Notes: generated by a model from the letters alone, not told the origin. Shown: positions 3,252 to 26,490, counted from the first letter of the stretch. The stretch: 26,490 bases of DNA from Lysobacterales bacterium (GCA_022844165.1 JALHMH010000032.1:28064-54553); one strand, 5' to 3'. Made by a program: numbers and translations.

Positions 3252-3564
3252 TCATTGCGCCTGTTCAGATGCGCGGAGTAACGCTTGCGCGCGCAGTGCG
3301 CAAAGCCACAAGCGCTGGGCAGAGATGCTGCCGAGTCCGTTTTACCGTTGCTGTGTCCGGATGCGCCTGCCTGCTCTCAACCTTCCCGATCTTCCTGGCT
3401 CAATCACGAAACAGGCGGGCCAGGCCTTCTGCCGGATACTGCCGACACGAAGGCACCGGATTTTTGAGGCTGATATGCTCCAGCGGTGCGCAGCTTCGAG
3501 CGCCAGCAGCGGAGGCCTTGCTGAAGCGCTGCACAGCTATGACAGAGGATCGGGAGTAGAGCGA

Positions 3565-3756
3565 ATGCCGGAATTAGAGGACGACCGTTTGTACGTCGTA
3601 GTCGCCAACCACGAGGAGCAGTATTCGATCTGGCTCGCCGATCGCGACATGGCGCCGGGCTGGCTCGAAACCGGCTTTCGCGGTTCGCGGCAAGAGTGCC
3701 TGGACCACATCGCGAAGGTGTGGACAGACATGCGCCCACGCAGCAGCAGAGGATGA
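3565..3756 (+). CDS. mbtH: MbtH-like NRPS accessory protein (63 aa)
   Basis: NHEEQYSIW...PGW...CLDHIAKVWTDMRPRS matches the MbtH signature with its three Trp. ATG at 3565 has GGAG upstream; the ORF-track start at 3325 is overextended. Confidence 0.95.
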   Translation: MPELEDDRLYVVVANHEEQYSIWLADRDMAPGWLETGFRGSRQECLDHIAKVWTDMRPRSSRG

Positions 3757-4622
3757 CTGCCCGAAGGCGGCTGCGCGCGACCGAACTGGGTGCCTGCATT
3801 TCGGCGCGCAAGCACAGCGAAGTGTTTCGCGTCGGCGCAGATCGAGTGCTCAAACTGTTCCGCGGGCACGTGCGTGTCGACCTGGTCGAACGCGAGCTGC
3901 GAACGGCGATGCGCGTGCATGCCGCAGGTATCCCAACGCCGGCCGTCGATGCCGCAATCTTCGAAACCGATGGCGGACGTCACGGTCTGATGTTCGAATA
4001 CATTGAGGCGACGCCGCTCTCGAAGCTGTTTGAGCGCCATCCTCTGCATATCGCCCGATATGCTCGCCTGTTCGCCGACCTTCATCGGCGCGTTCACGAA
4101 TTCGAAGCCGTCGACGGACTACCGATGCAACGCATCGAGCTGCGCGACCGGATACTGCAAAGCGGCCGGATGAGCCTGGGGATTCGCCAACAGTTGCTGG
4201 CGCGACTTGACGCTTGCTCCGAGTCCCAGGCGCCACGTCTGTGCCATGGCAACTTTCACCCGAGCAACGTACTGGTCCATGGCGACCGTGCCTGGGTACT
4301 GAGTCTTGGAAACGCTTGCAATGGCGATCCGATCGCCGATGTCGCCAGAACGTCGACCATCCTGGCCTATGCGGATATCAAGTCCTCCGGCTTGGCTGGT
4401 TGGCTTTCCACACACTATAGCCGCTGGCGAAACCGTCTCTACCTCGCACGGTACCTGGACGGAGAACGAAAATTGCAATTACAATTCGATACGTGGTTGG
4501 TGATTCAGATGGCGCGTCGGCTGGAGGATGGTATCGCCAAGGCGGAAAGCGAAGCACTGGAAAAGAATATCCTGCGACGCCTCAGCGCTGGTTCGCAATC
4601 GTCGCCCTCCGGCGCTGCTTAG
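3753..4622 (+). CDS. APH/choline-kinase-fold phosphotransferase homologue, probably catalytically inactive
   Basis: ATGA overlap with the mbtH stop. VLKLF, AGIPTP, LCHGNFHPSNV and GDPIADVART are recognisable, but HGD is HGN and (I)IDW is VLSL. Confidence 0.85.
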   Translation: MTARRRLRATELGACISARKHSEVFRVGADRVLKLFRGHVRVDLVERELRTAMRVHAAGIPTPAVDAAIFETDGGRHGLMFEYIEATPLSKLFERHPLHIARYARLFADLHRRVHEFEAVDGLPMQRIELRDRILQSGRMSLGIRQQLLARLDACSESQAPRLCHGNFHPSNVLVHGDRAWVLSLGNACNGDPIADVARTSTILAYADIKSSGLAGWLSTHYSRWRNRLYLARYLDGERKLQLQFDTWLVIQMARRLEDGIAKAESEALEKNILRRLSAGSQSSPSGAA

Positions 4623-4680
4623 TTTCGTCGCCCTGCCTTTCGCCCGCAAACGACCACGGCCATTCCCATCAGGAGTACTC

Positions 4681-5448
4681 ATGACGGTCACGCAACCACA
4701 GCTCTGGTTCGCCGACGATGCGGCGCCGTTTCTGGGTCTTGAGCCTTTTTACTACGACACCAAAAATTTTCCGTGGGTGAAAAAGGTCGAAGCTGAGTGG
4801 CAGACCATCCGCGATGAACTGCTTGAGCATCTCGCCATCGACCAGGACAGCATGAAGCCGTACGTCAATCGCGAGATGACTTCGCGGCCAAACAGCTGGA
4901 AAACGCTGGGCTTGATGTTCTGGACCATACGTTCGGCAACGAATTGCGCGCTGTTTCCGCGCACCTGGGAAATACTCAAGGACATTCCCAACCTCACGGC
5001 AGTGTCGCTCAACGTGCTCGAACCGCATACGACGATCAAACCGCATGTCGGCAACACCAACGCCATCATCCGTTGCCATCTTGGGCTGGTTGTCCCCGAC
5101 CAGGCACCACGCTGTGCGTTTCGTGTTGGCTCGGAGACGCGTAGCTGGGATGAGGGCAAACTCTTGATGTTCTGCGATGCGCATCAGCACACCGCGTGGA
5201 ACAATACTGACCAAAAGCGCTACATCCTGGTACTCGACATCATGAGACCCGAGTTCGTGCGGCTCAAGAATTCGACCTCGAGTCGCGTCCTGGCATCCAT
5301 CTATCAAGAGGCAGCCTACCAACGGTTTGCGTGGCTAAAGCGGTATTTCGGGGGGCGCCGCGGTCAGGCGTTCACGTTGTCGTTGTTGCGCGCGTTTTAT
5401 CGACTTACGCTCTGGAGCCACCGCTCGTTTTCGGCAGCCAGCGGCTAA
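4681..5448 (+). CDS. Aspartyl/asparaginyl beta-hydroxylase (AspH/LpxO family) Fe(II)/2-oxoglutarate dioxygenase
   Basis: WQTIRDE, IKPHVG...RCHLGL, W.EGK...FCDAHQHTAWN and RYILVLD. ATG at 4681 follows an AGGAG RBS. Confidence 0.9.
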   Translation: MTVTQPQLWFADDAAPFLGLEPFYYDTKNFPWVKKVEAEWQTIRDELLEHLAIDQDSMKPYVNREMTSRPNSWKTLGLMFWTIRSATNCALFPRTWEILKDIPNLTAVSLNVLEPHTTIKPHVGNTNAIIRCHLGLVVPDQAPRCAFRVGSETRSWDEGKLLMFCDAHQHTAWNNTDQKRYILVLDIMRPEFVRLKNSTSSRVLASIYQEAAYQRFAWLKRYFGGRRGQAFTLSLLRAFYRLTLWSHRSFSAASG

Positions 5449-5604
5449 GGCCAGAACATCCATGGGGTGGCCGGTCATCCGCTTGAGTGATTTACGACAG
5501 GTTCGCGGCCGCGGTCAGCTCGAGGACAGTGGAAGTTGGCGGTCTCCGCGGCACGCCGCGCGCCGCCTCGAACGCCCCGCGAACACGCCATCGAGGAGAT
5601 CGAA

Positions 5605-6834
5605 ATGACCGCATCCAACGAACCTGGCCTCGATTCGCACCGACTCGACGAAATCGACCTGATCGATCCGACACTATTCCATAGTGACCGGCATTTCGAA
5701 CTATTCGCTCGACTCCGCAACGAAGATCCGGTGCACCTGCAACGCAATCACCCACGCGTTGGTTCGTTTTGGAATGTCACCCGCTATGAGGACATCCTGG
5801 CGGTCGATCTCGACCACGCCGGTTTTCCATCGCGCGACACTTTCCTGATAGATGATATCGATCCGAACTTTACGCTGCCCATGTTCCTGGCGATGGAGCC
5901 ACCGAAACACACGGCTTATCGCGACTCTGTTCGATCGTTCTTTTCGCCGGAAACGCTCGCCCATTTGGAACCGGTGATCCGCGCGCGGGCCAGTGCGATT
6001 CTGGATTCACTACCGCTGGATTGTGAGATCGATTGGGTCGAACGTGTCGCGATAGAGCTCACCTCGCAAGTGCTTGCAGTGATCTTCGATTTCCCGATGG
6101 AGCGGCGCCGCCAACTCATCGACTGGTCGGACCTGGCGACGCTGGATCCACACGGCCGCGCGTTGAGCTGGCAGGAGCGCCAGTCGGGGTTGATGGATTG
6201 CCTGCGGTCGTTTACGGCACTCAAGTCCGCTCGTAGTGCGGGGCATCATGGCAACGATCTTTTGTCAACGCTGACGCATGGTCCTGCGGCGCGTTTCCTC
6301 AAACCGAGCGAGTTTCTCGGCAATATTCTGATGCTGATCGTCGCTGGCAACGACACCACACGCAATTCCATCACCGGCGGCGTCATTGCGCTGAACCGCT
6401 ATCCCGAACAATATGCGCGGCTGCGTGCCGATCCCGCGCTCCTGCCAGGGGCGGTATCGGAGATTTTTCGCTGGCAAACGCCCATCGCCTACATGCGCCG
6501 CGTTGCTGCTATCGACGCCCAGTTATGCGGAAAGTCGATCCGTGCGGGAGACAAAGTCGTGATTTGGTACGCATCAGGCAATCAGGACGAACGCGTTTTC
6601 GAGCAACCCGAGGCCTTTCGGCTCGATCGCAAGAATTCGCGCAAGTCGCTTTCGTTCGGATTTGGAATTCATCGCTGCTTAGGTGTACGGCTTGCCGACA
6701 TGCAACTTCGCATCTTGTGGGAAGAGATCCTGCGACGCTTTATCGTTGAACAGAGCGGTTCCGCAGTGCCGGTAGCTTCCATCTTCGTGAAGGGCTATTC
6801 GTCTTTGCCTGTGGTGCTGCGCAAGCTGTCTTAG
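5605..6834 (+). CDS. Cytochrome P450, CYP153-like
   Basis: I-helix EFLGNILMLIVAGNDTTRNS, ExxR (SEIFRWQTP) and heme loop FGFGIHRCLG..LA.MQLRILWEE with Cys at 6676-6678. ATG at 5605 follows GAGGAG. Confidence 0.93.
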   Translation: MTASNEPGLDSHRLDEIDLIDPTLFHSDRHFELFARLRNEDPVHLQRNHPRVGSFWNVTRYEDILAVDLDHAGFPSRDTFLIDDIDPNFTLPMFLAMEPPKHTAYRDSVRSFFSPETLAHLEPVIRARASAILDSLPLDCEIDWVERVAIELTSQVLAVIFDFPMERRRQLIDWSDLATLDPHGRALSWQERQSGLMDCLRSFTALKSARSAGHHGNDLLSTLTHGPAARFLKPSEFLGNILMLIVAGNDTTRNSITGGVIALNRYPEQYARLRADPALLPGAVSEIFRWQTPIAYMRRVAAIDAQLCGKSIRAGDKVVIWYASGNQDERVFEQPEAFRLDRKNSRKSLSFGFGIHRCLGVRLADMQLRILWEEILRRFIVEQSGSAVPVASIFVKGYSSLPVVLRKLS

Positions 6835-6879
6835 CCCGGACGACGCAAGAGATAGCGCCGCATCTGCGCATCTGCTCGC

Positions 6880-9800
6880 TCATCGCTGTTCGGCCGCGAG
6901 GTCGACCGCTTCGCCATCGTTGATTGGCTTTGTTGGGTCATGACCTGCAAGGGCAAGAACTCGGCGACAGACATCGTTGAGCAGCCGTGCGGCGATGCAC
7001 GGGTCAATCAGGCACGCATCGAACTTGATCTCGAGCCGCAACCGTTCGCCCGGCCAGAAAAAGAAGTTCAGCGGAATCGTGCTTTGCGCATGGGTGCGCA
7101 GTCCTGAGACGATCGGGTGAGGGACCTCGGCGTAGTTCTCGACGATCACAGCGCAATCGAAGAGTATCCCGCCGCCATTGGGCGCACTGCCAATGATCTC
7201 CTCGGAACTCACGTGCAGATGCGGTTCTCGCGCAATCTGCGCGGTCAGGACGGCATGCAATGCGGCTCTGGCGTCGACTCCTTCGGCCGCTTCGACCACC
7301 AAAGGCACAAGGTTGATGAACAGACCTGCGGTGTGCGCCAGTTCCGGCAGGTCGACCGGTCGCACCCAAACGAATTGCCCAAAGGCCACGCGCTCGCAAC
7401 CGCGCTCTGCGGCAAGTGCGTGTCCGAATGCCGCTACGTAAAGCGTGCTCGCGGGTACGCCGAGCGAACGAGCGCCAAAAAGTACACGGTTGGTCTCACT
7501 GGTCGAAAGGTCGTGCTCTATCGAACGGATTTCGCCGCCTCGCGAGCCAGGCGTCGTCAGCAGCCAGCTTCTGTCTTTGGACAACTGGGCCAGCTGTGCG
7601 CACCAGAACTCAATGCTGGGTTGGCGCGGTTGTGCCTGTATCCACGCCGCGTAAGAGCGATACGACCGTGCGGGCGCCAGGATGCGATCGGATCCGGTGC
7701 GCTCGGCCTCGTAGAGCTCGAACGCCTCGCCAAGCAGCATGACATCCGACCAGCCATCGAGCAGCGCATGATGGTATGTCCACACGAACTGATGGGAGAC
7801 CGCGTCGAGGCGGATCAAGTGCCACCGAAAGGGTGGTTGCGGGAGCAGCGCGAACTCTTCGCGGCGATCAGCTTGCAGATACTGCTCCAATAGCCCGGTC
7901 CTCTCGCGGGCAGGTCGATCGACCCAGCTCATCTCGCGCCATGTCAGTGTGGCCCTTTTGTTGCAAACCAGCATCGGTCGATCTTCGAGCCTGAAGGAAA
8001 AATAGCTGCGCAGCGCTTCGTGCCGTTCGGCAACGCGAGACCAGGCGCGCTTGAATGCCGCGACGTCGAGGTCGTGCAGCACGCCCTCAACCTGTTCGAT
8101 ACAAAAACCACTCCGCGGATAACGCAGCGACTGCGCTAACATCTCCAGTTGCATTGGCGTCGGGCCGCAAATGAACTCGATGTCGCGCCATGATGGATGC
8201 GCGTGGAACTTCTGCAAATCCGCTCGGCCCAGTCTTGCTGCGGTGATAAACGCTGCACGTTGCGTGGTGTCGTCGCCAGGCGATCGATTTTCCCGGCAAG
8301 CTGCAAGTGCCATGCGAAGGCTCGGCGCCCCCAGCAGTTCTGCGAGTTCCAGTAGAAGTCCCGCTCGGCGCAGTGCCGACAGGAACTTCAGAGCCAGCAC
8401 GGAGTCGCCGCCCACGTCGTAGAAGCTGGCGTCCAGCGATGGCGCGAATCCGAACGCCGAAACCAGCGCCGCTACGCGGGGATCCGATTCGTCTGTCGTT
8501 GTCTGACCGTCGCGATCCGGGACGAACGTTGGCAGCGCGCGCGTATCGATCTTCGCGTTCGCGGTCAGCGGAAACGCATCGAGTCGATAGAAATGCGATG
8601 GCACCATGTAACTCGGCAGCTGCGCCGACAGCGCCTCTACCAACGCAGAAGTCGCCTTATCGCCGCCCCTGCCTACAAATCGGCCGCGCTCGCTCACGTT
8701 GTCGTCGATAAGAAAAGCGACCAGGGCGTCGGCGGCACCAGCGCGGACGCGCTCGACATAAGCACCTCTAATGCCGGGTTGGCGCAGCAGGTGGTGCTCA
8801 ATCTCACCCAGCTCGATGCGAAAGCCGTGCAACTTGACTTGGCGATCGATGCGACCGACGACGACGATAGCGCCGTCTTGATGACGGTATGCGCGATCGC
8901 CCGTCTTGAACATACGGGCACCTGGCGTGGCGCTGAACGGATCAGGCAGAAAGCGCGCCGCCGTCGCCAACGGCGCACCGTAGTACCCGCGTGCGACCAG
9001 CAATCCGCCGATGTAGAGTTCGCCGATCGCATGGTCGCCCAATGGCGCGAGTGCTTCGTCCAGCACATACAGCGCATTGCCAGCGAGCGGATGCCCGACC
9101 GGCACCAGGTCCGTCTCCAGGGCACCGGCATCTGGCAGTTTCCAGCCGCAGTTGGTGATTGTAGTTTCTGTCAGACCATAGGCGTTGACGCAAGGCACCT
9201 GGCGGGCATAGTACTGCTGCCACACGCGCGCCTTCGCTGGCGGGCAGGGTTCGCCGCCGATGATCACCAGCCGCAACGACGGCGGCAAAGGCAGACGCGC
9301 GACCTCAAGATGCTCGAGCCATGCCGACCAAAGCGCGGTCGGCAGATTGAGCACCGTCAAAGATTCGCGCCGGAGACAATCGTCGATCGCGGCCATGCCC
9401 TGCGTTTGCAGGTCAGGCGCCACGATGACGCAAGCGCCGGCACAAAACGTCGGCAACAGCTCTTCGATCGAGACGTCAAAGCTCGGGGCGCAAATATGCA
9501 ATACGCGATCGCTGGCCGCGAGCTGGTATCGCTCGATCGCAGCGCGTAGATGCGCGTCGAGGTTGTCGCGGCCAACAAGCACCGGCTTGCTACTGCCCGT
9601 CGTACCGGACGTCTGGATGATATAGGCGCCGTCAGAACCGTATGCCCATTCGCCATCCGGCGCAATTGCGTCGATATCGGGCAGACCAGACCAGTGCAAC
9701 ACGGGCACAGTTGTCGCAAGCGGCGGCTCGGCGATCGAAACAACGCACTGCAGCCCGGATTGCCTGACGTATCCCAGCAACCGCTGAGCGGGCAGACAAG

Positions 9801-10065
9801 CATTGAGCGGCACATAAACGGCGCCGATTCGAAGGATCGCCAGCATCGCGACCACTGCATTCGATGAACGATTCGCATACACGCCGACGTGACTGCCGGA
9901 AGTCACGCCGGCTGCCCTCAGATCGGCTGCGCGCAACGCTGTTGCCGCATCCAGTTGGCGGTAACTGAGCACTCGGCTGCCATCGAGCAGCGCCGGAGCT
10001 GCAGCGCGCTGATTGGCATGCCAGGTCAGTCGCTCGGAAAGCAGATCCGTTGCCTTAGGCTTCAT
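6880..10065 (-). CDS. Stand-alone NRPS with A-T-C architecture (terminal condensation domain)
   Basis: A domain: LSYRQL, QTSGTTG, SFDVS, NAYGLTE, FKTGD, GRIDRQVKLHGFRIELGEIE, PLTANAKID. T domain: FYDVGGDSV, Ser at 8401-8403. C domain: HHALLDG at 7753-7773. ATG at 10065 is the preferred start; the ORF is open to 10209. Confidence 0.92.
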   Translation of the reverse strand: MKPKATDLLSERLTWHANQRAAAPALLDGSRVLSYRQLDAATALRAADLRAAGVTSGSHVGVYANRSSNAVVAMLAILRIGAVYVPLNACLPAQRLLGYVRQSGLQCVVSIAEPPLATTVPVLHWSGLPDIDAIAPDGEWAYGSDGAYIIQTSGTTGSSKPVLVGRDNLDAHLRAAIERYQLAASDRVLHICAPSFDVSIEELLPTFCAGACVIVAPDLQTQGMAAIDDCLRRESLTVLNLPTALWSAWLEHLEVARLPLPPSLRLVIIGGEPCPPAKARVWQQYYARQVPCVNAYGLTETTITNCGWKLPDAGALETDLVPVGHPLAGNALYVLDEALAPLGDHAIGELYIGGLLVARGYYGAPLATAARFLPDPFSATPGARMFKTGDRAYRHQDGAIVVVGRIDRQVKLHGFRIELGEIEHHLLRQPGIRGAYVERVRAGAADALVAFLIDDNVSERGRFVGRGGDKATSALVEALSAQLPSYMVPSHFYRLDAFPLTANAKIDTRALPTFVPDRDGQTTTDESDPRVAALVSAFGFAPSLDASFYDVGGDSVLALKFLSALRRAGLLLELAELLGAPSLRMALAACRENRSPGDDTTQRAAFITAARLGRADLQKFHAHPSWRDIEFICGPTPMQLEMLAQSLRYPRSGFCIEQVEGVLHDLDVAAFKRAWSRVAERHEALRSYFSFRLEDRPMLVCNKRATLTWREMSWVDRPARERTGLLEQYLQADRREEFALLPQPPFRWHLIRLDAVSHQFVWTYHHALLDGWSDVMLLGEAFELYEAERTGSDRILAPARSYRSYAAWIQAQPRQPSIEFWCAQLAQLSKDRSWLLTTPGSRGGEIRSIEHDLSTSETNRVLFGARSLGVPASTLYVAAFGHALAAERGCERVAFGQFVWVRPVDLPELAHTAGLFINLVPLVVEAAEGVDARAALHAVLTAQIAREPHLHVSSEEIIGSAPNGGGILFDCAVIVENYAEVPHPIVSGLRTHAQSTIPLNFFFWPGERLRLEIKFDACLIDPCIAARLLNDVCRRVLALAGHDPTKPINDGEAVDLAAEQR

Positions 10066-10576
10066 GTGCTTGGCGTTCGCGCTGTGAATGAAGATGTTGA
10101 CGAAAGCATGCCCGGAAAGCGGGGCAGATGTTTGCCCCCATGACGTTGATCGATTGAAACGAGACCTCGCCGGACGCGACACGAACACATCCGTCCGAAA
10201 AGGCGCCACTCGTCATCCAGCGCGTGCCAAAGCATGACGATACCGATCGGCGCCTCATCATCAAGTGTGACCTAAGCGCTCACAAATCGCATCTGTTCCG
10301 AATCATTCCCCGTCCGATTTGCAACAGTACGGCTCAGGGCCGTTGCGTTCTACGACAAAGACGAGCCTCGCAAGGCCCGGTTCAGGCGGCTCAATGTCGT
10401 CGAGCTGTGAACGCACTTGACGCTGCTGAGCACCTCATTAGTGCGCGAAAGGCCCTTTCTGCGCCGAACTGGTGCCACTTGCTGCGCCGGATAGAGCTCG
10501 ATTCTGGCAGAGCCCGGCGGTACCACTTGTTTGCATGGCAGCTGCTGCACGACGTCGATTTGCTGAGGTCCACATT

Positions 10577-10613
10577 TTAGACCTTGTGACACTTACGCGA
10601 CAGAGTCTAACAT
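10577..10613 (+). promoter_or_regulatory. Candidate promoter/operator upstream of the FAAL-PKS
   Basis: AT-richer patch with TTGTGA-N18-TAACAT, overlapped by an imperfect inverted repeat TTAGACcttgt...acagaGTCTAA, 33 nt before the GTG start. Confidence 0.3.
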
Positions 10614-10646
10614 TCGCCCGGATATTTCCTGACAGATGAGCATTCT

Positions 10647-13600
10647 GTGCAAAAGAGCAATCTGATTGACGTCGTCCGTGCTCGCTTGGCGCAAACACCC
10701 GAAAGAGTCGCGTTCACATTTCTTGATTACCACCCGCGCACGGGGCAGCGAATCTCTACTTCGTGGACGATGTACGAACTGGATGCGCGGGCGCGTTCGG
10801 TCGCTGCGGAACTCGATCGGCTTGGCGCGCGTGGGGAACGCGCCCTCCTGCTGTATCGCGCCGGACTCGATTTTGTCGCCGGATTTCTAGGCTGCCTGTA
10901 TGCCGGCGTCGTGGCGGTACCAGCGTCTGTGCCCAAGCAGGGCTGGGGCGCAGACCGCGTAAGAACGATCGCAGCGCACTCGGGCGCTCGCTTTGCACTG
11001 TCGACCGCAAGCTCGTTGCGCGCCACCAGTCAGTTTCTCACCGGGCGCGACGATCTGCAATGGTTGCTGACCGACGAAATCGCTCCTGCTGCAAGAGATA
11101 CCGCCTTCATACCAGCAGCGATGCAACGCGAAGACCTGGCGCTTTTGCAGTACAGCTCAGGTTCGACCGGCAACCCGAAGGCGGTGATGATCACGCACGA
11201 CAATCTGCTCAGCCAAGCCTTGCTGGTGCGCGATGCTTTTGCGCTGACCGAAGACGACTGTTCCGTGTCCTGGCTTCCCAATTACCACGACATGGGTTTG
11301 ATCACGTCCGTTGTCTTGCCGCTGTTTACCGGGTTCCACTGCGCATTGATGGCACCGGAAGCTTTCGTGATGAAGCCTTCCCGCTGGCTACAGGAACTGT
11401 CGGAGCGTCGGGTACGGTGCTGCGTCGCACCTGACTTCGCGTACGAACTCTGTACGCGCAGGATTAGCGACGATGAGCTGCGCGCGCTTGATCTCACAGC
11501 GATCGAGCACGCTGTCAACGGCGCAGAACCGGTGCGCGCCCGCACGTTGGCTCGGTTCACGGAGCGCTTCGAACCCTGCGGTTTCGATGGCGATGCATTT
11601 AAGCCCGTCTATGGTCTGGCCGAAGCTACGCTGATGGTCTCAGGCCGGAGCAGCAAGCTGGTCATCGGCTCGTTTGAACGCGAACCGCAGGACAGGCGCG
11701 AGCGCTCCGCAACCGATGCCGCCGATTCAACCGCGATCCGGCTTGTGTCCTGCGGCCGGGCATATGGCGACAACGACATTCGCATTGTGGACCCGGAATC
11801 ACGCCGCGAACTGCCAGCGCTTCACACGGGCGAGATCTGGGTCCGTGGCGGGAGCGTTGGTCGCGGCTATTGGGGAGACGTCGGGGCCAGCAACGACAAC
11901 TTCAGCGCGATGCTCGCCGATAGCGACGGCACGCGGTTCATGCGCACCGGCGACCTTGGCTTCTTCCAGGATGGAGAGCTCTTCATTCGCGGACGTTTGA
12001 AGGACCTGATTCTGATTCGCGGCAGCAATCATCATGCGCCAGACATCGAACAGACGGTAGAAGCTTGTCATCCAGCACTAGCCGTTTCGAGCGGCGCGGC
12101 ATTTTCTGTCGATATCGACGACGAAGAACGTTTGATCATCGTGCATGAACTCGAACGCGACGGCCGCGGCATTCCCGAAGCGCAGCTCGCCGAAATCGCT
12201 ACGACGATCCGTCGCTGCGTCACAGAACAACACCAAATCGCTCCCCATGCCGTTCTGTTGCTCGGCCGCGGCTTACCCAAGACCACCAGCGGCAAAGTCC
12301 GCCGCGACGAGTGCCGCAGCCGCTTTCTCGCCGGGCAACTGAAGACCGCCTATGCCTGGACAGCCTCGCAGTCCGATGATGCGCCGACAAAGACCGGCGC
12401 CGCAGAGGCGGGCTCCGAGCGGCAACAGCAGAAGACCACCCAGTGCGAGCAGTGGCTGATCGATCGGATCGCGCGAGCAAGCGGCACCCGCAGCGACCGG
12501 ATTGGCATTTTGACGCCCGTCTCTGAATTCGATCTCAGCCCCGCCGCGATGATCGAACTGGTCCGCGACTTCGAACGTGAGTTCGGCGTGTTGGTAACGA
12601 TGTCTGTGTTTCTTGAGCATGAAAACATCCAACAGCTGGCCAACCACCTTGGCAAGGCCATCGCAGCGGCCGATGAGGCCGAACCCGGCACCGGCGGTCG
12701 GCTGACAGCGGAGGCGTTGGCAAGCTCCATGGGCAGCGAAGCGCGCTCGTCGGCCGCAGATGCGATCGCCATTGTCGGCATGGCCTGCCGCCTCCCTGCG
12801 GCGAATGGGACGAAGGCCTTTTGGGACAACCTATGCCGTGGCGTCGACGCGGTAGGAGAGGTCCCGCCGGAGCGTTGGGACAACGAAGCACTGTATGACG
12901 AAAACCCGCTCGCACAGGGGAAGATGAATACGCGCCGCGGCGGATTCCTCACCGACGTGGAACTCTTCGATCGGAAGTTCTTCGGCATTCCGGTGCGCGA
13001 GGCAGTACGCATGGATCCGGCGCATCGGCTGCTATTGGAACTGAGCTGGGAAACCCTGGAAGATGCCGGTATCCCCGCTGGTAGCGTTAGCGGACAGCGC
13101 GTTGGCGTGTACATCGGTATTTCCGGAAGCGACTACGCGCAGCTGCAATTCGGCGACGAAATGCTGGCCGATGCCTATGCTGGCGTCGGTTGTGCGCTCA
13201 CGAACTCCGCGAGCCGCATCTCGCACTTCCTCAACCTGCGCGGACCGGCGCTGGCCGTCGATACGGCTTGTTCGTCCTCCCTCAGCGCGCTGCACCTGGC
13301 GGCCAGCGCCGTCCGCTCCGGCGAATGCCAGCTGGCGCTCGCGGGCGGCGTGAACATTATCTTATCGCCTACCGTGACGATGTCGCTCAGTAAGGCCGGC
13401 ATGATGGCACCTGACGGTCGCTGCAAGACCTTCGACAAGCGCGCCGATGGATATGTGCGATCCGAAGGCGCCGGCCTGGTGCTGCTCAAGCCACTCGCCA
13501 GAGCGATCGCCGACGGCGACCGGATCTACGCTGTCATTCGTGGTTCGGCCAGCAATCAGGACGGAAAGAGCAGCGGTATTTCTGCTCCCAACGGCGAAGC

Positions 13601-19202: not shown

Positions 19203-19216
19203 CGACTCACGCTGCA

Positions 19217-19242
19217 CCGGTCCAGACCTGGACCGGCTTTCT
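19217..19242 (+). terminator. GC-rich hairpin with a short pyrimidine tail between the PKS and ABC genes (weak terminator or mRNA-stability element)
   Basis: CCGGTCCA-gacc-TGGACCGG is a perfect 8-bp stem followed by ctttct, 14 nt after the PKS stop. Confidence 0.45.
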
Positions 19243-19268
19243 CACCGCGTCAAAGACGGAATCCAATC

Positions 19269-20954
19269 ATGCAGCTCTTCAAGTTCCTCCTTAAGCACTC
19301 GAGTGCGCTACTGTTGCTGTCCATGATCGTTGGCATCGGCGCTGGCGCCGGAAGCGCCTACATCCTGGCTCTGGTCAACGACAGCCTCGCGAGCATCGGT
19401 CAGGCTGAAACCCAGTCGCAGGTAGCCATGTTGTTCTGCGGCCTGGTGCTGGTGGTCGTTGGCGCCGAGTTGGTGTCCCGGTTGTTGCTGCTCCGAGTGT
19501 CTGCGCGCGCAGTCCGCGATATGCGCATGAATTTGTGCGACCAGATCTTGAAATCGCCTCTGCGTCGTGTCGAAAGCAGCGGTTCAAGCGGCTTGATGGC
19601 GGCACTGACCGAAGATGTGCAACGCATTGCGGAGGCGCTGATCGCGCTCCCGACGCAATGCGTCAACGTAGCGATCGCGGTCGCATGCTTCGCTTATTTG
19701 TTCTACCTGTCGTGGCCGCTGGCGCTCGGCTTTGTCGGAATTTACCTGGTCGGAATCGTGGCGCATGAATTGATGTCGCACGCAGCGCGACCGTCGATGA
19801 AGAAGGCGCGTGCAAAGTGGGATGCGCTAATTGGCCTGTACACGGGCATCATCAATGGCAATAAGGAACTCAAGCTCCAACGTCAGCGTCGGCGCTCGCT
19901 GCGTAACGACGAACTGGTACCGACTGCTGACGAGATGATGCGCCTGGCATGGCGCTCGAATTCGATCGTTGCTGTAGGTGCGGCGCAAACGCAGCTGGTG
20001 TTTTTTGCATTGCTCGGACTCGTGCTCTTCGTCGCACCGCGCTACGGCGTATTCGAACCCAGCGTGATCAGCGGCTTTGTGTTGATGGCTTTGTTCATGA
20101 GCGGTCCGATCGCCTCGGCGGTCGGCACGTCGCCCAAGTTCCACGTCGCCGACGTTTCGCTCAAAACGATCCAGTCGCTTGGGCTGTCGCTCTCAGCCGA
20201 CGCCGTCAGCGATCTGCGCGATGCCGGCGAGACGAACGACGATGCGCCTTTCGCTGGTATCGAGTTGCGCGATGTCGTTTATCGCTACGTTACCGAAGAT
20301 CAGGGCGATCGCGCCTTTGTGCTGGGTCCAATCAACCTCAAGATCCTGCCTGGCGAACTCACGTTCATCGTCGGCGGCAACGGCAGTGGCAAGAGCAGCC
20401 TGATGCGCATACTAACCGGGCTGTATACGCCGACTTCCGGCACCCTGGCGCTCAACGACCGGCTCATCGACGACGAAAATCGGGATGACTACCGCCAGAA
20501 CTTTGCCGTGGTGTTCTCGGACTATCACCTTTTCAAGAGTCTGGGCGGCGTACTTGAACCAGGGACGTTGGCAATCGCAGACGAGTACTTACGGCAGCTG
20601 GAACTGAGCGAAAAGGTGCGCATCGAAAACGGCGAACTTTCGACAGTGGACCTGTCGCAAGGCCAGCGCAAGCGACTCGCATTACTGACCGCTTTCCTGG
20701 AGAACCGTAGCGTCTTCATGTTCGACGAATGGGCAGCGGATCAGGATCCGTCATTCAAGAGAGTGTTCTACCACCGAATCCTGCCGCAGCTTAAGGCACT
20801 GGGCCGCACCGTCATCGTGGTCAGTCACGACGACCAGTACTTCGAGTCGGCCGATCGCATTGTGCGCTTCGCGGACGGCCGTATTGTCGAGGATCGTTAT
20901 CTGCACGGGCAGACGAATGCCGGTACGCCAGAGCAAACGCTCGCCATGGCCTGA
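19269..20954 (+). CDS. Cyclic peptide export ABC transporter (SyrD/PvdE/YojI family)
   Basis: N-terminal TM domain, GNKELKL, Walker A GGNGSGKS, signature LSQGQRKRLAL, FDEWAADQDP and VSHDD. Confidence 0.95.
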   Translation: MQLFKFLLKHSSALLLLSMIVGIGAGAGSAYILALVNDSLASIGQAETQSQVAMLFCGLVLVVVGAELVSRLLLLRVSARAVRDMRMNLCDQILKSPLRRVESSGSSGLMAALTEDVQRIAEALIALPTQCVNVAIAVACFAYLFYLSWPLALGFVGIYLVGIVAHELMSHAARPSMKKARAKWDALIGLYTGIINGNKELKLQRQRRRSLRNDELVPTADEMMRLAWRSNSIVAVGAAQTQLVFFALLGLVLFVAPRYGVFEPSVISGFVLMALFMSGPIASAVGTSPKFHVADVSLKTIQSLGLSLSADAVSDLRDAGETNDDAPFAGIELRDVVYRYVTEDQGDRAFVLGPINLKILPGELTFIVGGNGSGKSSLMRILTGLYTPTSGTLALNDRLIDDENRDDYRQNFAVVFSDYHLFKSLGGVLEPGTLAIADEYLRQLELSEKVRIENGELSTVDLSQGQRKRLALLTAFLENRSVFMFDEWAADQDPSFKRVFYHRILPQLKALGRTVIVVSHDDQYFESADRIVRFADGRIVEDRYLHGQTNAGTPEQTLAMA

Positions 20955-21030
20955 CCAGACCACTGCCATGCATGTGCTCGACGCGAAGCTTCGCTCCCCA
21001 GAAATCCCGGCCCGCAAGGAACATACTCGC

Positions 21031-21765
21031 GTGTCGGCGATCAGCGTGATCAGGCGCGTGGCGTTGCCGAAACTTCGCTTGTTTTGCTTCCCGTACGCTG
21101 GCGCCGGTCCATCGGTCTACCGCGACTGGGCAACTGCGCTGCCAGAACACGTCGAACTGGCAGGTGTTGTATATCCCGGTCGCGAGTCGAGAGCGAACGA
21201 AAGACCGCTGACTAATCTCGCCGCCCTGGTTGGCACCCTGGTCGACGAAATCGGCGGACTCCTCGATCTGCCATTTGCCTTCTTTGGGCATAGCATGGGC
21301 GCTTATGTGGCCTTCGAGGCCGCGCGATCTCTCAGCATGCGGGGCTTGCGTCCCGAGCATGTCTTCGTTTCGGCGGCGGGCGCACCGCACCTGCCCGAAC
21401 CGAACCCAGTGCATGCGTTGGATCCTCGCGCTTTCTTCGAAGCGCTGCTGAGATTGAACGGATTCCCGGCGGAAGTGCTGCGCAATGCCGAACTCGTCCG
21501 TTATGCGCTACCGATCTTGCGCGCCGACTTAAAGGCCTGCGAAACGCATCGCTTCGATTTTGATCGACCGAGCCTGTTTCCTATCACTGCTTATGGCGGG
21601 AGAAGCGATCCCCGCGTTTCGCATGAACGGATCGCGGCTTGGCGCGCGACGGCGGGTGTGGAGTTCGCTCTACGCATGTTCGACGGCGATCATTTCTTCT
21701 TTCGCCCACAGCAAGATGCGGTGCTGTCGGACATGATGAATCGGCTCTCGGAGCCCCGTCGATGA
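21031..21765 (+). CDS. Type II thioesterase (editing)
   Basis: RLFCFPYAGAG, YPGRE, FFGHSMG, LRADL and GDHFF. Start is GTG at 21031 (AAGGA upstream) or ATG at 20968. Confidence 0.92.
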   Translation: MSAISVIRRVALPKLRLFCFPYAGAGPSVYRDWATALPEHVELAGVVYPGRESRANERPLTNLAALVGTLVDEIGGLLDLPFAFFGHSMGAYVAFEAARSLSMRGLRPEHVFVSAAGAPHLPEPNPVHALDPRAFFEALLRLNGFPAEVLRNAELVRYALPILRADLKACETHRFDFDRPSLFPITAYGGRSDPRVSHERIAAWRATAGVEFALRMFDGDHFFFRPQQDAVLSDMMNRLSEPRR

Positions 21766-24700
21766 CGCGAAAGCCCGACATCGCAAAGCTCACCCCCGAG
21801 CAAAGAACTCGTGCAAGATCGAGACTGCTTGCGATCAAGGCGCGGCGCGACGGGGTCTATCCGCTGGCGCCTGCGCAAAGTGCGATGTGGTACCAGCAGT
21901 TGGCCGAACCTGCGAGTGCCGCGTACAACATGCCTTTAGCGTTCTGCCTGCATGGCGAGTTCCCCGAACCGCAGCGCGTCGTCGCTCAATGCCTCGAGGC
22001 TGTGGTGCAGCGGCACTCAGCCTTGCGAACGGTTTTTGCAATCGAGATCGACGAGCCTTGCCAACGAGTTTTGCCGGACGTACCTGTAGCACTCGTTTTC
22101 CGCGATTTGGAAGGGCACTTGCCGACGGACTGGCGCGCCGAGGTGCCTGCGCTCAGCCGGCAGCAAGCTAAAGGCGCATTCGACCTGGAACGCGGCCCGT
22201 TGTTTCGTTTCGAACTCGCGCGTGTTGCCGCAGACCAGCACATTTTGTTCGCCACTTTTCATCACATCGTGATGGATGGTTGGTCGATCGGCGTTTTTCT
22301 CAACGACTTCGCGCAGGCCTTCATCGGCGTCGCCGATGGCAAACCTCCGGCCTGGGAACGCCTCGAAGTCGACTATGCCGACTTCGTCCTGTCTCACGCT
22401 GCAAAAACGGAAGGCGAACGTCGGTCGGTACTAAAACGCTATTGGCAGCAACGTCTGGTGGATGCGCCTGCGTTGCTGGAACTGCCATGCGAGTTCAAGC
22501 GGCCCGCGCGTTACAGCTACAACGGCGCAGTGTATGGCTTTCCGATCGAAAACCAAATCGCACAGGGCCTGAACGAACTTGGCCGTCAGATCGGTGCGAC
22601 GCCGTTCATGGCAGCACTTGCGAGCTTCTATGTGCTTTTGGCGCGTTTATCGGGCCAAAGCGACATCGTGCTCGGCGTCAGCACCGCCAATCGCGACAGC
22701 AAGCAGTTCTGGGGCGTGATCGGTTTGTTCTCCGATATCCTGCCGATGCGCGCAATGGTCGCCTTGAACGGCGGCTTTCGCGCCTTTCTGGGCAATGTGC
22801 GCGCACAATGCCTGCGCGACTACGATCATGCCGACGTGTCCATGACCAGCATTATCGAGTTCGCTCGCCCGCAGCGAGCGCCCGATCGAACGCTTTTATT
22901 CCAAGCTGGCTTCGACTACCAAAATACGCCTTGGCCAGACGTCGTTGGCGAACATGTGACGCTACTGAATGGCGACGCCGGGGCGACCAAGCTCGACCTG
23001 AACTTCAATCTGAGCCGCGTTCGCGACGAACTGTTCGCCGTTTTTGAATACAACACCGATCTTTACTCGGAAGCGACGATCGCCGGCTTTGCTGCCAGTT
23101 ACCGCCATTTGCTCGCGGAAATGTTGAAGCATCCCGATGCGCCGATGGACCGTTTGCCGCTACAACCAGAATCGACGCTACTCGCGGCGGCAGCCGCGCC
23201 GGGCAGTGCTGCGCCCATCGCCGGCACGACGGTGCTCGATGCCATCGCGACCGCAGCAGCGCTGCATCGAAATCCAGAAGCGCTACTTGGCAAGCACGAG
23301 TGCGTCGACGCAGCCACGCTGATGCGACGTGCCGATGCAATCGGCTTGGCGCTGCGCGGCGCGGGCGTCCGACCGGAGGATCGCATCGGTCTGTTCTTGT
23401 CGCGCTCGACGGGGTTTGTTCAGTCTCTGCTCGGTGTTTGGGTTGCCGGTGCCTGTTACGTGGCTATGGACCCCGCGCTTGCCGATGAACGGATCGACTT
23501 CATGATCGGCGACGCCGGCATTCGCGTCGTTTTGACCTCTCGTCTCAATGCTGTCTCGTGGCGGCATCGCGAAGGTGTGCAACTGCTGCTGATCGACGAT
23601 GCCATCGCCAACCCGTCGATTCCATCGCCGACCACGCTCCCAGGTGCACGGGCCGAACATCTTGCCTACCTGATGTACACCTCGGGTACAACCGGTCAGC
23701 CCAAGGGCGTGATGGTCGAACACCGGGCGTTACGCGCCTTCACGGCGGCGGCGATCGCCAACTTCGCCGTATGTGCCCAAGATCGTGTTCTGCAGTTTGC
23801 GTCGGCGAGTTTCGATACCAGTTTGGAAGAGATACTGCCTGCTCTGTGCACCGGCGCAACACTGGTCATTGCCGACGAGGAGGCTGGCAGTTCGATCGCA
23901 GGCCTGCTACAGGCCTGCTCTGCACAGCGCATCAGCCTGCTCAACCTGCCCACCGCAGTTTGGCATGAACTCGTCGAGACCCTGGACGCCGAAGCGATCG
24001 TTCTGCCCGAGACGATTCGTGCAGTGGTCATTGGAGGCGAAGCGGCACAGCCGCAATCGGTCCAGTGTTGGCGGTCGTGCGTGCCAGCGCACGTCAGGCT
24101 GATCAACACCTATGGACCCACCGAGATAACGGTCAGTGTTGCGCACGCCGATCTTGCGGCGACGGATGTCGACGAAGCGCGCCGTCCTGCGGTGAGCCTC
24201 GGGCGCGTGAATGCTGGCGCCAGCGTCTGGATTCTGGATCCGTTCGGCGCACCTGTGCCACGCGGCGTTTTCGGCGAGCTGGCCGTTGGCGGTACCACCC
24301 TGGCACGCGGTTACTGTGGACTACCGGCGCTGACAGCGCAGCGTTTCGTGCCCGATCCCTGGGGCGACGGGTCGCGTCTGTATCTGACTGGCGATTGGGC
24401 TCGGTTCCGCAACGACGGCAGCCTCGAATTTGGTGGACGGCGCGACGATCAAGTGAAGTTGTCAGGGTTTCGCGTAGAACTAGGCGAAATAGAAGCGCAA
24501 TTGCTTCGCCACCCAGCGCTCCGGCAAACCGCAGTGCTTCTGCATACGCGCAGCGCCGATCAACCGCAACGCCTTGTAGCCTATGTTGTGCCACACATCC
24601 GCCCGGGCATCGAAATCGAAGATCTGCGCCGATGGTCGGCACAGAAACTCGCCGCCCACATGCGCCCGGCGACATACGTTGTAATGGATGAACTGCCGCT

Positions 24701-26490
24701 CACAATCAGCGGCAAAGTCGATCGACGCGCGCTGTACGAATTGCCGGCGGAAGCAGCGGCGCCCGGCGCCGCATCGACCGCGCCGCGATCCAACGATGAA
24801 GCGGCTCTTGCAGCGATTTGGTCGGAGGTACTCGGCATCAATGGGATTGGTGTCGAACAGAACTTCTTCGAGATTGGGGGCCACTCGCTGCTACTGATCC
24901 GCATGCTGTCTCGGGTCCGGCGGCAGATGCAGGTTGATTTGCCGCTTGGCCGCGTTTTCGAAGCACCAACAATCGCGTTGCTTGCTGAGTCTATCGCCGA
25001 AGCACGCAACCAACGCCGCGTCTACGATTCGCCGATCGCCATTGCGCCCCGACAATTGGGCGCCGTCGCACTCACTGCACGGCAGTCGCTGGCGCAGCAA
25101 AGATTGTGGTTCTTGCAGACCCTGCAGCCGGACTCTTCTGCTTACGGCAATCCCAGCGCCACGCTTCTCTTGGGGAATCTGGATATCGGTGCTTTGCAAC
25201 ATGCCTTGGATGAACTGATAACCCGTCACGAAATCCTGCGCACCGTATTCGCCGAGATCGACGGTGAGCCCAGGCAAAGAGTGCTCAACGAACTTGCACT
25301 GCCTATTCGCATTGTGGATCTCAGCGGCGCCCAAGTAACGGATCCGCGGGTTGCGGCCCTGGTTGCTCAGGATGCCGCCGCGCCATTTGATCTGATCCAT
25401 GGGCCCTTGTTGCGCGCCAGCGTCGCGATACTCGAACGTTCACGCCACGTCTTGCTGTTCAACTGGCATCACATCATTACCGACGCCTGGTCCCTGGTCA
25501 TATTCCAGCGCGAACTGACCGCGCTCTACAACGCTGCGGTGGGCGGCAAGCCGATCGCGCTGGTGCCTGCGATCGTGCAGTACGCGGACTTCGCGAACTG
25601 GGAGGCGGCTCAACTGCAGAGCGAAGGTTTGGCGAACCAGTTGTTGTTCTGGCGTGAGCGGCTTGCTGGTGCACCAGAAGCGATGCAACTGGGAGCCCTG
25701 ATCGCTTCCAGAAGCGGGCCCAACTGCAGCCGTCGCAGCATATCGCTGCCGCACGCCACTCTCGATCCGTTGAACCAGGTCGCAAGACGTCTGAGGACGA
25801 CGCTATTCGTAGTTTGTCTGGCAGCATTTAAACTCCTGCTGGCGCGCTATAGCGGCAGCACGGATGTCATCGTTGGTACACCGATTTCCGGGCGCTCGCG
25901 CGAGGAGTTCGAGCCGGTTCTCGGGTACTTTCTCAATACGCTGGTGTTACGCACCGAGCTCGCCGACGCGATGAATGTCGGAGATCTCTTCAGGAAGGTC
26001 CGTGAGACCGCCACGCAGGCGTTTGCGCATCGCGACCTGCCATTCGACAAACTCGTACAGGAACTCAGTCGGGCGCGTCAGTCGGGCGGCACGCCGCTCT
26101 TTAACGTGGCGTTCGTACTGGAACACGATTCCAATCAGTCCGTCGCACTCGATGGCCTGACTCTCGTCGCCCTGCCCCGTGGTACCCAGGAAGCGAAATT
26201 CGATCTCTCGTTGAGCATGCGTGCTTTCGAGGATCGCCTCGACATCGAATGCGAGTTCCGCAGTGGTAGCGATGTCGCCATTGAACGAATGCTCAGGCAT
26301 CTATCGATGCTACTGGTGGCGCTGCCGGCTGACCTCACTCGCCCCCTTTCGGCCCTCGACATGCGCCTTGGCGAGGAGCGCTCGGTGCCGGTGTGGGCGC
26401 CGTTGGCGCTGCGGCCGACACGCGTCGATGCGGCGATTGCCGCACAAGCGGCTCGCTCTGGCGGTGCGCCTGCGGTTGCGATGGAAGGTC
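21762..26490 (+). CDS. Multimodular NRPS, docking helix-C-A-T-C-(A...), truncated by the right edge (not in the ORF track)
   Basis: ATGA overlap with the TEII stop. Manual translation: MTRKPDIAKLTPEQR..., C1 FHHIVMDGWS (~22260), A YTSGTTGQPKGV (~23676), SFDTS, NTYGPTE, LTGD, PLTISGKVDR, T NFFEIGGHSLL (Ser at 24885-24887), C2 WHHIITDAWS (~25464). All checked motifs are in one frame. Confidence 0.95.
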   Translation, partial: MTRKPDIAKLTPEQRTRARSRLLAIKARRDGVYPLAPAQSAMWYQQLAEPASAAYNMPLAFCLHGEFPEPQRVVAQCLEAVVQRHSALRTVFAIEIDEPCQRVLPDVPVALVFRDLEGHLPTDWRAEVPALSRQQAKGAFDLERGPLFRFELARVAADQHILFATFHHIVMDGWSIGVFLNDFAQAFIGVADGKPPAWERLEVDYADFVLSHAAKTEGERRSVLKRYWQQRLVDAPALLELPCEFKRPARYSYNGAVYGFPIENQIAQGLNELGRQIGATPFMAALASFYVLLARLSGQSDIVLGVSTANRDSKQFWGVIGLFSDILPMRAMVALNGGFRAFLGNVRAQCLRDYDHADVSMTSIIEFARPQRAPDRTLLFQAGFDYQNTPWPDVVGEHVTLLNGDAGATKLDLNFNLSRVRDELFAVFEYNTDLYSEATIAGFAASYRHLLAEMLKHPDAPMDRLPLQPESTLLAAAAAPGSAAPIAGTTVLDAIATAAALHRNPEALLGKHECVDAATLMRRADAIGLALRGAGVRPEDRIGLFLSRSTGFVQSLLGVWVAGACYVAMDPALADERIDFMIGDAGIRVVLTSRLNAVSWRHREGVQLLLIDDAIANPSIPSPTTLPGARAEHLAYLMYTSGTTGQPKGVMVEHRALRAFTAAAIANFAVCAQDRVLQFASASFDTSLEEILPALCTGATLVIADEEAGSSIAGLLQACSAQRISLLNLPTAVWHELVETLDAEAIVLPETIRAVVIGGEAAQPQSVQCWRSCVPAHVRLINTYGPTEITVSVAHADLAATDVDEARRPAVSLGRVNAGASVWILDPFGAPVPRGVFGELAVGGTTLARGYCGLPALTAQRFVPDPWGDGSRLYLTGDWARFRNDGSLEFGGRRDDQVKLSGFRVELGEIEAQLLRHPALRQTAVLLHTRSADQPQRLVAYVVPHIRPGIEIEDLRRWSAQKLAAHMRPATYVVMDELPLTISGKVDRRALYELPAEAAAPGAASTAPRSNDEAALAAIWSEVLGINGIGVEQNFFEIGGHSLLLIRMLSRVRRQMQVDLPLGRVFEAPTIALLAESIAEARNQRRVYDSPIAIAPRQLGAVALTARQSLAQQRLWFLQTLQPDSSAYGNPSATLLLGNLDIGALQHALDELITRHEILRTVFAEIDGEPRQRVLNELALPIRIVDLSGAQVTDPRVAALVAQDAAAPFDLIHGPLLRASVAILERSRHVLLFNWHHIITDAWSLVIFQRELTALYNAAVGGKPIALVPAIVQYADFANWEAAQLQSEGLANQLLFWRERLAGAPEAMQLGALIASRSGPNCSRRSISLPHATLDPLNQVARRLRTTLFVVCLAAFKLLLARYSGSTDVIVGTPISGRSREEFEPVLGYFLNTLVLRTELADAMNVGDLFRKVRETATQAFAHRDLPFDKLVQELSRARQSGGTPLFNVAFVLEHDSNQSVALDGLTLVALPRGTQEAKFDLSLSMRAFEDRLDIECEFRSGSDVAIERMLRHLSMLLVALPADLTRPLSALDMRLGEERSVPVWAPLALRPTRVDAAIAAQAARSGGAPAVAMEG

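Follow-up and report, generated by a model that had tools for sequence, protein, structure and literature searches.

A probable orphan fatty acyl-primed PKS–NRPS lipopeptide cluster with a rare accessory gene set in a Lysobacterales bacterium

Introduction

What would a bacterium make with a lipopeptide assembly line that is accompanied by a cytochrome P450, an AspH-like dioxygenase, a putative pseudokinase and a nonribosomal peptide synthetase (NRPS) encoded on the opposite strand, and how much of the pathway does the available sequence contain? This question is raised by a stretch of 26,490 nucleotides (hereafter, the window) from a Lysobacterales bacterium assembly (GCA_022844165.1, JALHMH010000032.1:28064-54553; in our numbering G000:C32:28064-54553). 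A preliminary description, prepared from the sequence alone, had seen in it an unfamiliar set of genes led by a polyketide synthase (PKS) with a fused fatty acyl-AMP ligase (FAAL). We read the window, with somewhat better than even confidence, as containing the initial ~23 kb of a hybrid lipopeptide cluster that is intact and orphan. This confidence applies to the whole reading jointly: the lipopeptide core, its continuation on a second contig (C3), and the roles given to the oxygenases, the stand-alone NRPS and the kinases. The cluster extends beyond the window.

The assembly-line core

Genes were called by Pfam and NCBIfam domain searches of the window followed by start-codon refinement, and every gene of the preliminary description was found, intact, where it had been placed (Table 1). 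The largest encodes the FAAL-PKS synthase, in which the motifs DTACSS, HGTGT, NIGH, GHSLGE, GGLGGLG, YAAAN and GLDSI are present. The active-site Cys and both His residues of the ketosynthase (KS), the GHSLGE and YAFHS motifs of the acyltransferase (AT), the Rossmann motif and Tyr of the ketoreductase (KR), and the DSI site of the second acyl carrier protein (ACP2) are all intact. Judged by these KS, AT, KR and ACP motifs and by Pfam domains above their cut-offs, the PKS extension module is complete; YAFHS suggests a malonyl extender.

We aligned the synthase with its paralogue in the same genome and with the homologue in Lysobacteraceae bacterium NML91-0213 (G001). In all three, the catalytic His of the dehydratase (DH) is replaced by Leu, Pro or Ala (Leu in the window), the second DH motif (HPxLLDxxxQ-type) carries Glu in place of Asp, and the Gly-rich NADPH motif (GGVG) of the enoylreductase (ER) is lost. 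Both domains are predicted to be catalytically dead, which leaves the KR as the only intact reductive domain. With the KR acting alone, a 3-hydroxyacyl chain is the expected chemistry; the preliminary description had proposed both. Because the inactivation is common to the three homologues, we regard it as a design feature and not as decay.

On the FAAL domain, FAAL models gave the top NCBIfam scores (PRK05850, 428 bits; FadD21, 370; FadD32, 367), all under their full-protein cut-offs, and generic long-chain acyl-CoA ligase models scored 132-275 bits. The first carrier, ACP1, lies between FAAL and KS (12450-12650) and matches PP-binding with 40 bits. Its Asp-Ser site, in a weak stretch of the MAFFT alignment, reads DLS for the window protein, DAA for its paralogue and GTE for the G001 homologue, and the phosphopantetheine Ser of ACP1 may not be conserved in this synthase family.

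Downstream of the synthase, an ABC transporter with ABC_membrane and ABC_tran domains (Pfam) exceeds the TIGR01194 subfamily cut-off, in keeping with its earlier identification as a SyrD/PvdE exporter. It is followed by a type II thioesterase (TEII) and an NRPS with the HHxxxD motif in both condensation (C) domains. This NRPS had been described as ending at C-A-T-C (A, adenylation; T, thiolation); the four domains stand, whereas the protein goes further, its final ~22 residues being the beginning of a second A domain. No extra HH....GD motif, as in dual epimerization/condensation (E/C) or E domains, was present in the four NRPS proteins scanned. The catalytic motifs of the T, C, TEII and thioesterase (TE) domains are intact in motif checks. 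Overall, the domain content favors the assignment to the FAAL-primed PKS/NRPS type of lipopeptide cluster.

That the genes are a relic in decay, or serve siderophore production instead of making a lipopeptide antibiotic or surfactant, is very improbable. Such a reading could draw on the absence of the cluster from the sole same-genus genome searched (99% complete), in which neither the stand-alone NRPS nor the FAAL domain was found, and on the ABC pump family, which also exports pyoverdine precursors. Yet the large open reading frames (ORFs) are all open (2851, 1061 and >1570 aa) with catalytic motifs intact, and the DH/ER inactivation is shared by all three homologues. We rejected the siderophore reading: neither the window and the 20 kb upstream on C32 nor the C3 end and the paralogous cluster showed a TonB-dependent receptor, an N-hydroxylase or any other chelator-forming gene.

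Table 1. Features of the cluster within the window (positions counted from the first nucleotide of the window)
Feature	Position	Strand	Basis and remarks
MbtH-like protein, 63 aa	3565..3756	+	PF03621, 63.2 bits vs cut-off 27
APH-fold protein, predicted pseudokinase (APH1)	3753..4622	+	PF01636, 68 bits; start overlaps MbtH stop
Fe(II)/2-oxoglutarate dioxygenase, AspH/LpxO/OlsC family	4681..5448	+	PF05118, 163 bits vs cut-off 22.6
CYP153-family cytochrome P450	5536..6834	+	CYP153A7 (PDB 3rwl) best match, 414 bits
Stand-alone NRPS, A-T-C	6880..10065	-	Pfam; called protein P0001, 1061 aa
Divergent intergenic region, A-T-C to PKS	10066..10646	.	ORF 10224-10580 looks non-coding
FAAL-ACP-KS-AT-DH-ER-KR-ACP synthase, 2851 aa (DH and ER predicted inactive)	10647..19202	+	Pfam + NCBIfam
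Cyclic-peptide export ABC transporter (SyrD/PvdE/YojI type)	19269..20954	+	TIGR01194, 456.5 bits vs cut-off 286.2
Type II (editing) thioesterase	20968..21765	+	PF00975, 156 bits; GHSMG motif
NRPS, C-A-T-C-A(start)…	21762..26490, cut by contig end	+	Pfam

Probable continuation on a second contig

A 389-N scaffold gap directly precedes the window, and the contig stops where the window does. Where does its NRPS gene continue? The G000 assembly comprises 59 contigs, all ≥13 kb, with 99.97% completeness and 0.02% contamination. When all window proteins were searched against it by tblastn, NRPS sequence was found only on C32 and C3, together with one weak AMP-ligase match on C14. The terminal 1.4 kb of C3 (minus strand) encode the tail of an A domain, from just before A10, then T and TE domains. 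Past the TE lie a trio of PF05118 genes, the gene for a CYP107/105-like P450, a methyltransferase gene and an APH gene whose product retains both catalytic Asp residues. Most likely, judging from the domain phases and gene content, the window NRPS resumes at this end (…A-T-TE) across an assembly gap.

Several observations favor this join. The strands of C32 and C3 are compatible, the A domain starts at one end and finishes at the other, and these are the only two NRPS-bearing contig ends in a nearly complete genome. In G001, a single contig (G001:C13, 47 kb) carries both homologous blocks, separated by 8 kb with methyltransferase, PhyH, DUF998 and MacAB-like genes. Similarly, at one of the related loci described below (L006), a T-TE NRPS end stands directly upstream of AspH and CYP153 genes and an opposite-strand A-T-C-like gene, and the C3 fragment is the best match to that T-TE end (37% identity).

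Against the join, the contig ends do not overlap and no read connects them; the 600-nt ends match nothing else in G000, and a blastn search with the whole NRPS and the C3 end gave a single weak 207-nt match. The TE-side block of G001 is found upstream of the cassette, an order that differs from a simple colinear join, so gene order is no proof that C32 and C3 belong together. Across the gap, the number of modules can be given only as at least two.

The missing overlap and the G001 gene order would also suit a C3-end block (T-TE, three AspH-like genes, P450, methyltransferase and APH) that is a third, separate cluster, with the window cluster truncated or ending otherwise. Both ends of the G001 contig (L034-L036) lie inside NRPS genes on the same strand, so more NRPS DNA than was assembled may exist; as the G000 assembly retains no contig <13 kb, short NRPS pieces may have been dropped. 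We nonetheless consider a separate cluster unlikely, given that there are just two NRPS-bearing ends, on compatible strands and with complementary A-domain parts. It also sits poorly with the kinase/pseudokinase and AspH paralogue pairs, which are shared with G001 and lie on one contig there, and with L006, where a T-TE end is tied to the cassette.

The break itself can be compared with the paralogous locus. G000 holds a complete sister cluster of four modules (G000:C3:77002-107232; L002, L003), whose two NRPSs are C-A-T-C-A-T and C-A-T-C-A-T-TE and whose FAAL-PKS, ABC exporter and TEII are 43%, 50% and 50% identical to those of the window. It also encodes a MacB-like permease, one AspH-like protein, a phosphopantetheinyl transferase, a LysR regulator and a DapF homologue whose 142 bits exceed the TIGR00652 cut-off. 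The A-domain cores of its modules 2 and 4 form a 1,429-nt direct repeat with 98.8% identity, which suggests recent gene conversion. As this paralogue shows, A-domain cores can be near-identical repeats, and for this reason assemblies break in such NRPS genes; the missing stretch of the window NRPS covers roughly the same part of the A domain. The first G001 NRPS is cut after its second C domain, at almost the same domain position as the window NRPS, and the two breaks are consistent with a repeated A-domain core disrupting both assemblies.

We also looked for the missing sequence in public data. Four public runs labelled drinking water metagenome cover the last 3 kb of the window in short pieces, in which uncovered stretches are uninformative. 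One contig of 1,903 nt (run X1), placed at 26372-26490 and beyond, extends 1,784 nt past the window end; the best public run is possibly the source sample of the genome, so this extension does not count as independent support. Word depths at the window end were low (~2-9), and low depth may explain the fragmented NRPS. No gap-bridging relative emerged from a metagenome scan with the second C domain (49 loci, the best 41% identical, none useful) or from a scan of species-representative genomes with the window P450 (29 loci, best 55%).

Oxidation by two enzymes and a single kinase-like gene, as first described, is what the window encodes; that inventory is incomplete if C3 is joined. With the C3 continuation, the AspH-like enzymes of the cluster would likely number four and its P450s two, with a methyltransferase and a pseudokinase/kinase pair in addition.

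The stand-alone NRPS

The preliminary description had correctly noted a separate A-T-C NRPS on the strand opposite to the synthase. Its C domain carries HHALLDG and is nearest, by PDB similarity, to the C domains of PvdL, McyB and SrfA-C. The intergenic region that separates the two genes presumably holds promoters; the ORF within it (10224-10580) has no Pfam or NCBIfam match and translates into Arg/Cys-rich junk. Among 5.8 billion proteins, the A-T-C protein had one relative at 70% and about eight same-length relatives at 34-43%, all generically named. A sample of 399 genomes of the order yielded four with this protein, one of them G000.

We derived specificity codes by hand from the A4/A5 motif positions. 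The module 1 code of the window is DTENVGTVSK, with DTENVGTVAK as its G001 counterpart and DAENIGTVTK as that of the G000 paralogue; the A-T-C protein has DVENIGAITK in the window and DLENIGAITK in G001. The A-T-C pattern D-[VI]-E-N-[IVL]-G-[AG]-I-T recurred in all nine metagenome homologues examined, as well as in two of the four genomes with the gene (G047 and G073). Both window A domains thus have closely related codes with Glu at specificity position 239, and this Glu probably marks a positively charged side chain at residue 1 and at the A-T-C residue. The ornithine code, as we take it to be, shares Glu239 and Asn278, a likeness unconfirmed in any paper text; a search for the A-domain codes in full texts of papers gave no relevant match. 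The proposal of a basic first residue and a similar A-T-C residue accordingly holds as far as Glu239 and the related codes are compatible with it, while the word "basic" depends on a rule that we presume to apply. By the codes that we take as references, the other modules of the paralogue would be Leu-like, Ala and Leu-like.

In G047 and G073, the A-T-C gene belongs to a different, larger FAAL/PKS/NRPS cluster, where a CmlA-like beta-hydroxylase and TauD dioxygenases flank it. The order in G047:C1:2,091,000-2,107,000 (L094, L095) and G073:C11 (L098-L100) is P450, TauD, x-A-T-C, CmlA-like hydroxylase, A-T-C, TauD, C-A-T; the P450 is 61% identical to that at the C3 end. We dismissed the two as complete reference clusters, the A-T-C cluster there being without CYP153, AspH and APH.

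The arrangement in these genomes, with A-T-C co-directional among NRPS/PKS genes and placed after another x-A-T-C protein, would suit an in-line module split between C and A, whose amino acid ends in the peptide backbone, and PDB similarity groups the C domain with ordinary peptide-bond-forming ones. We hold an in-line role to be rather doubtful for the window. Here the A-T-C gene is transcribed divergently from the synthase genes, and the downstream NRPS is self-sufficient so far as it is visible (C-A-T-C-A… plus …A-T-TE on C3). Moreover, tblastn found no A-T-starting protein in the genome that could act as acceptor for the A-T-C C domain.

Oxygenases and kinase-like proteins

The window P450 is identical to CYP153A7 (PDB 3rwl) at 202 of 392 positions (51%) and has the heme-Cys motif FGFGIHRCLG and the I-helix motif. 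Under the CYP nomenclature rule, ≥40% identity to a named CYP153 confers family membership. By its identity and heme-thiolate motif, then, the protein first described as CYP153-like can be placed in that family. At 3 of the 29 P450 loci (L005, L006 and L007), all from other gammaproteobacterial assemblies, AspH and opposite-strand A-T-C(-like) genes adjoin CYP153, with identities of 30-55%; L007 has an APH-like gene and a FAAL-PKS in addition.

The neighboring dioxygenase matched OlsC best among NCBIfam models (145 bits; cut-off 450), followed by LpxO (83 bits; cut-off 500). The same held for all five AspH-like proteins of G000, with OlsC best at 133-148 bits and LpxO at 68-89 bits. Both Fe-binding His residues align with human AspH and are kept in all six paralogues and orthologues aligned.

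What do these oxygenases act on? We favor the acyl tail for the P450, and the acyl chain or the peptide for the AspH-like enzymes. A serious alternative, to which we give less than even weight, is that the oxygenases target amino acids: beta-hydroxylation by the AspH-like enzymes, perhaps also by the P450, would take place on carrier-bound residues (notably that of the A-T-C protein) or on residues of the peptide, and the product would be a poly-hydroxylated lipopeptide whose tail is ordinary. Carrier-bound amino acids are the substrates of CmlA and of several TauD enzymes, and these are the families that flank the orthologous A-T-C of the same code in G047 and G073, where a TauD gene also precedes the second x-A-T-C protein. 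The name of PF05118 refers to peptide Asp/Asn hydroxylation, and four AspH-like paralogues suit several residues better than a single acyl C2. In the empedopeptin pathway, a dioxygenase pair encoded beside the NRPS genes hydroxylates Asp and Pro; the part of the source consulted does not state the enzyme family (PMC8069584).

Three points speak against this alternative. The acyl 2-hydroxylase OlsC is the best family match of all five AspH-like proteins. The P450 shares 51% identity with an alkane omega-hydroxylase and is unlike the P450s that we take to hydroxylate carrier-bound amino acids. Finally, none of the four codes of the paralogous cluster, which has its own AspH-like enzyme, or of the four G001 codes resembles what we take to be Asp/Asn codes.

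The kinase-like protein APH1 has HGN in place of HGD, with Asn replacing the catalytic Asp, and Ser replaces the Mg-binding Asp; with both residues substituted, the earlier label "pseudokinase" is correct. Among the four APH-like proteins aligned, the two substitutions occur in the window protein and its G001 orthologue, whereas both Asp residues are retained in the C3-end protein and in the other G001 protein. The kinase/pseudokinase split is thus common to G000 and G001. A PDB search with APH1 found no relative at E≤0.01, and an ESM Atlas search returned generic APH-family clusters only.

Proposed biosynthesis

The domains indicate how synthesis would start: a fatty acid would be adenylated by the FAAL and placed on the synthase, one C2 extension would take place on the single KS-AT module, and KR-only reduction would give a 3-hydroxyacyl thioester. 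The first NRPS C domain would join this thioester to residue 1, and at least one further module would follow before release by the TE of the C3 fragment. MbtH would support the A domains, TEII would edit mis-primed carriers, and the TIGR01194 pump would export the product. Residue 1 and the A-T-C residue would be similar, probably cationic amino acids. We propose that CYP153 hydroxylates the end of the acyl tail and that the AspH/OlsC-like enzymes hydroxylate acyl C2 or peptide residues. Because the C domain of the A-T-C protein follows the T domain of the same protein, canonical logic has the protein donate its amino acid; it could move the residue from its own carrier onto a nucleophile of the lipopeptide and so create a branch. 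The active kinase may mask a hydroxyl of the product for self-protection, with a non-catalytic role for the conserved pseudokinase.

Carried to its end, this scheme allows a bolder and quite improbable product: a two-headed, ornithine-lipid-like cationic lipopeptide made via PKS/NRPS. Its 3-hydroxyacyl-(Orn-like)-peptide would have a CYP153-hydroxylated tail end, the A-T-C C domain would attach a further cationic residue as an ester, either at that hydroxyl or at a different one made by an enzyme, OlsC-like enzymes would add 2-hydroxyls in the manner seen with membrane ornithine lipids, and the kinase/pseudokinase pair would phospho-mask the compound in the producer. If true, this would be a new route to an aminolipid-type amphiphile and a new job for both CYP153 and a terminal NRPS C domain.

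Several points weigh against the reading proposed here, in addition to those raised on the join. The specificity codes were read by hand, and "cationic" follows from a rule that we assume. The A-T-C-like gene at L006 has a differing, Leu-like code. The AspH-like proteins score far under the OlsC and LpxO cut-offs and similarly against human AspH. No ferredoxin or ferredoxin reductase partner for CYP153 was recognized among the window ORFs. The hydroxylase context in G047 and G073, lastly, favors carrier-bound amino-acid hydroxylation and possibly an in-line A-T-C.

Cluster borders and genomic context

The cluster begins with the MbtH gene, whose ATG at 3565 is preceded by GGAG. We place its left border at ~3228-3564, since the genes further left are unrelated and on the minus strand; the start at 3565 in the preliminary description is the true left border. 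Four small minus-strand genes occupy 376-3227: a CarboxypepD_reg-like gene, a family-less secreted protein (1125-1868), a weak DUF2306 match and a DUF2141 gene. They are not kept beside the G001 cluster. ORFs 3-587, 2030-3127, 3155-3559 and 10224-10580 were dismissed as genes, with no Pfam or NCBIfam matches; the printed translations of 3-587, 2030-3127 and 10224-10580 resemble wrong-frame junk.

On C32, 5' of the scaffold gap, lie housekeeping genes and a two-component system. The latter consists of a GAF/HisKA_3 sensor kinase and a LuxR-type response regulator at G000:C32:23089-25394 (L004 14990-17295), just 5' of the gap, and the pair could possibly regulate the cluster. The GC content of the window is even (0.58-0.64), and an Rfam search of the window found no RNA families.

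Comparison with known systems

We call the cluster uncharacterized on the basis of NCBIfam cut-offs, the source names of homologues and full-text literature searches. No protein reached a pathway-specific NCBIfam cut-off, and the literature searches, judged in part by titles and abstracts, found no cluster that pairs CYP153 or PF05118 enzymes with such a PKS/NRPS line; to that extent the impression of an unrecognized gene combination was upheld, no named pathway being matched. The core logic, in which a FAAL feeds one KR-only PKS module and then an NRPS, is known chemistry, and the cluster opens no new category of system. Its value lies in accessory genes that are rare yet conserved. An NRPS cluster here includes a CYP153 and as many as four dioxygenases of the AspH/OlsC type; the pseudokinase/kinase pair is conserved, and so, across two cluster types, is the code of the stand-alone A-T-C. 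The host lineage consists of poorly studied gammaproteobacteria, known mostly from metagenome assemblies. As a genome-mining lead for heterologous expression, the cluster could yield a new hydroxylated, probably cationic lipopeptide and reveal roles of AspH-type enzymes and CYP153s in nonribosomal pathways.

Individual components recall several known pathways. The APH-fold kinase in a cluster for a probably basic, hydroxylated nonribosomal peptide is reminiscent of viomycin and capreomycin, whose phosphotransferases are APH-family self-resistance kinases; however, no NCBIfam or PDB match ties the APH proteins found here to Vph or Cph, and one of the two copies is dead. In contrast to the CYP153 omega-hydroxylases of alkanes and fatty acids, the window P450 has no adjacent ferredoxin or reductase and sits in an NRPS/PKS cluster beside the A-T-C gene. 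The P450 and the A domains gave best or high NCBIfam matches to the solanimycin models SolI (356 bits vs 850) and SolG (294 and 408 vs 2200). The sol cluster of Dickeya solani, as far as the consulted part of its report describes it, has a hexaene PKS, a transaminase, a flavin-dependent monooxygenase (FMO) and a MATE pump, and no FAAL, AspH or APH (PMC10204066). With scores far under the cut-offs and a different gene set, we rejected identity with solanimycin. Empedopeptin, according to the portion of the source consulted, is initiated by a starter C domain and not by a FAAL-PKS (PMC8069584).

The closest parallels concern the loading step. In the desmamides, according to a review, fatty acid loading is done by a FAAL that is fused to a PKS module, and one malonyl extension with KR gives a beta-hydroxyacyl-ACP that passes to the NRPS (PMC11837247). 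The window appears to share this FAAL-fused PKS feeding NRPS modules with the cyanobacterial desmamides, with micacocidin and with puwainaphycin-type loading. It differs from the desmamide type in keeping a dead DH and ER, as predicted here, and in its gammaproteobacterial host; CYP153, four AspH-like enzymes, a pseudokinase/kinase pair and a stand-alone A-T-C are not mentioned in the passages of that review that were consulted (PMC11837247).

The best full-length NCBIfam matches of the synthase were the mycobacterial Pks2/Pks13 and FadD21/28/32 models, all under their cut-offs. In mycobacterial glycopeptidolipid synthesis, a FAAL and a Mas-like PKS deliver a 3-hydroxyacyl chain to a short line of two NRPSs with MbtH nearby. 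Here, by comparison, the FAAL is fused to the PKS, release would be by TE and not by a reductase, glycosyltransferases are absent, and the taxon is different. Ornithine lipids, finally, come from acyltransferases (OlsB/OlsA or OlsF). In the window cluster, scores fall well short of the cut-offs for OlsC and LpxO; if residue 1 is ornithine-like, however, the first bound intermediate would have the lyso-ornithine-lipid skeleton, reached here by a PKS/NRPS route.

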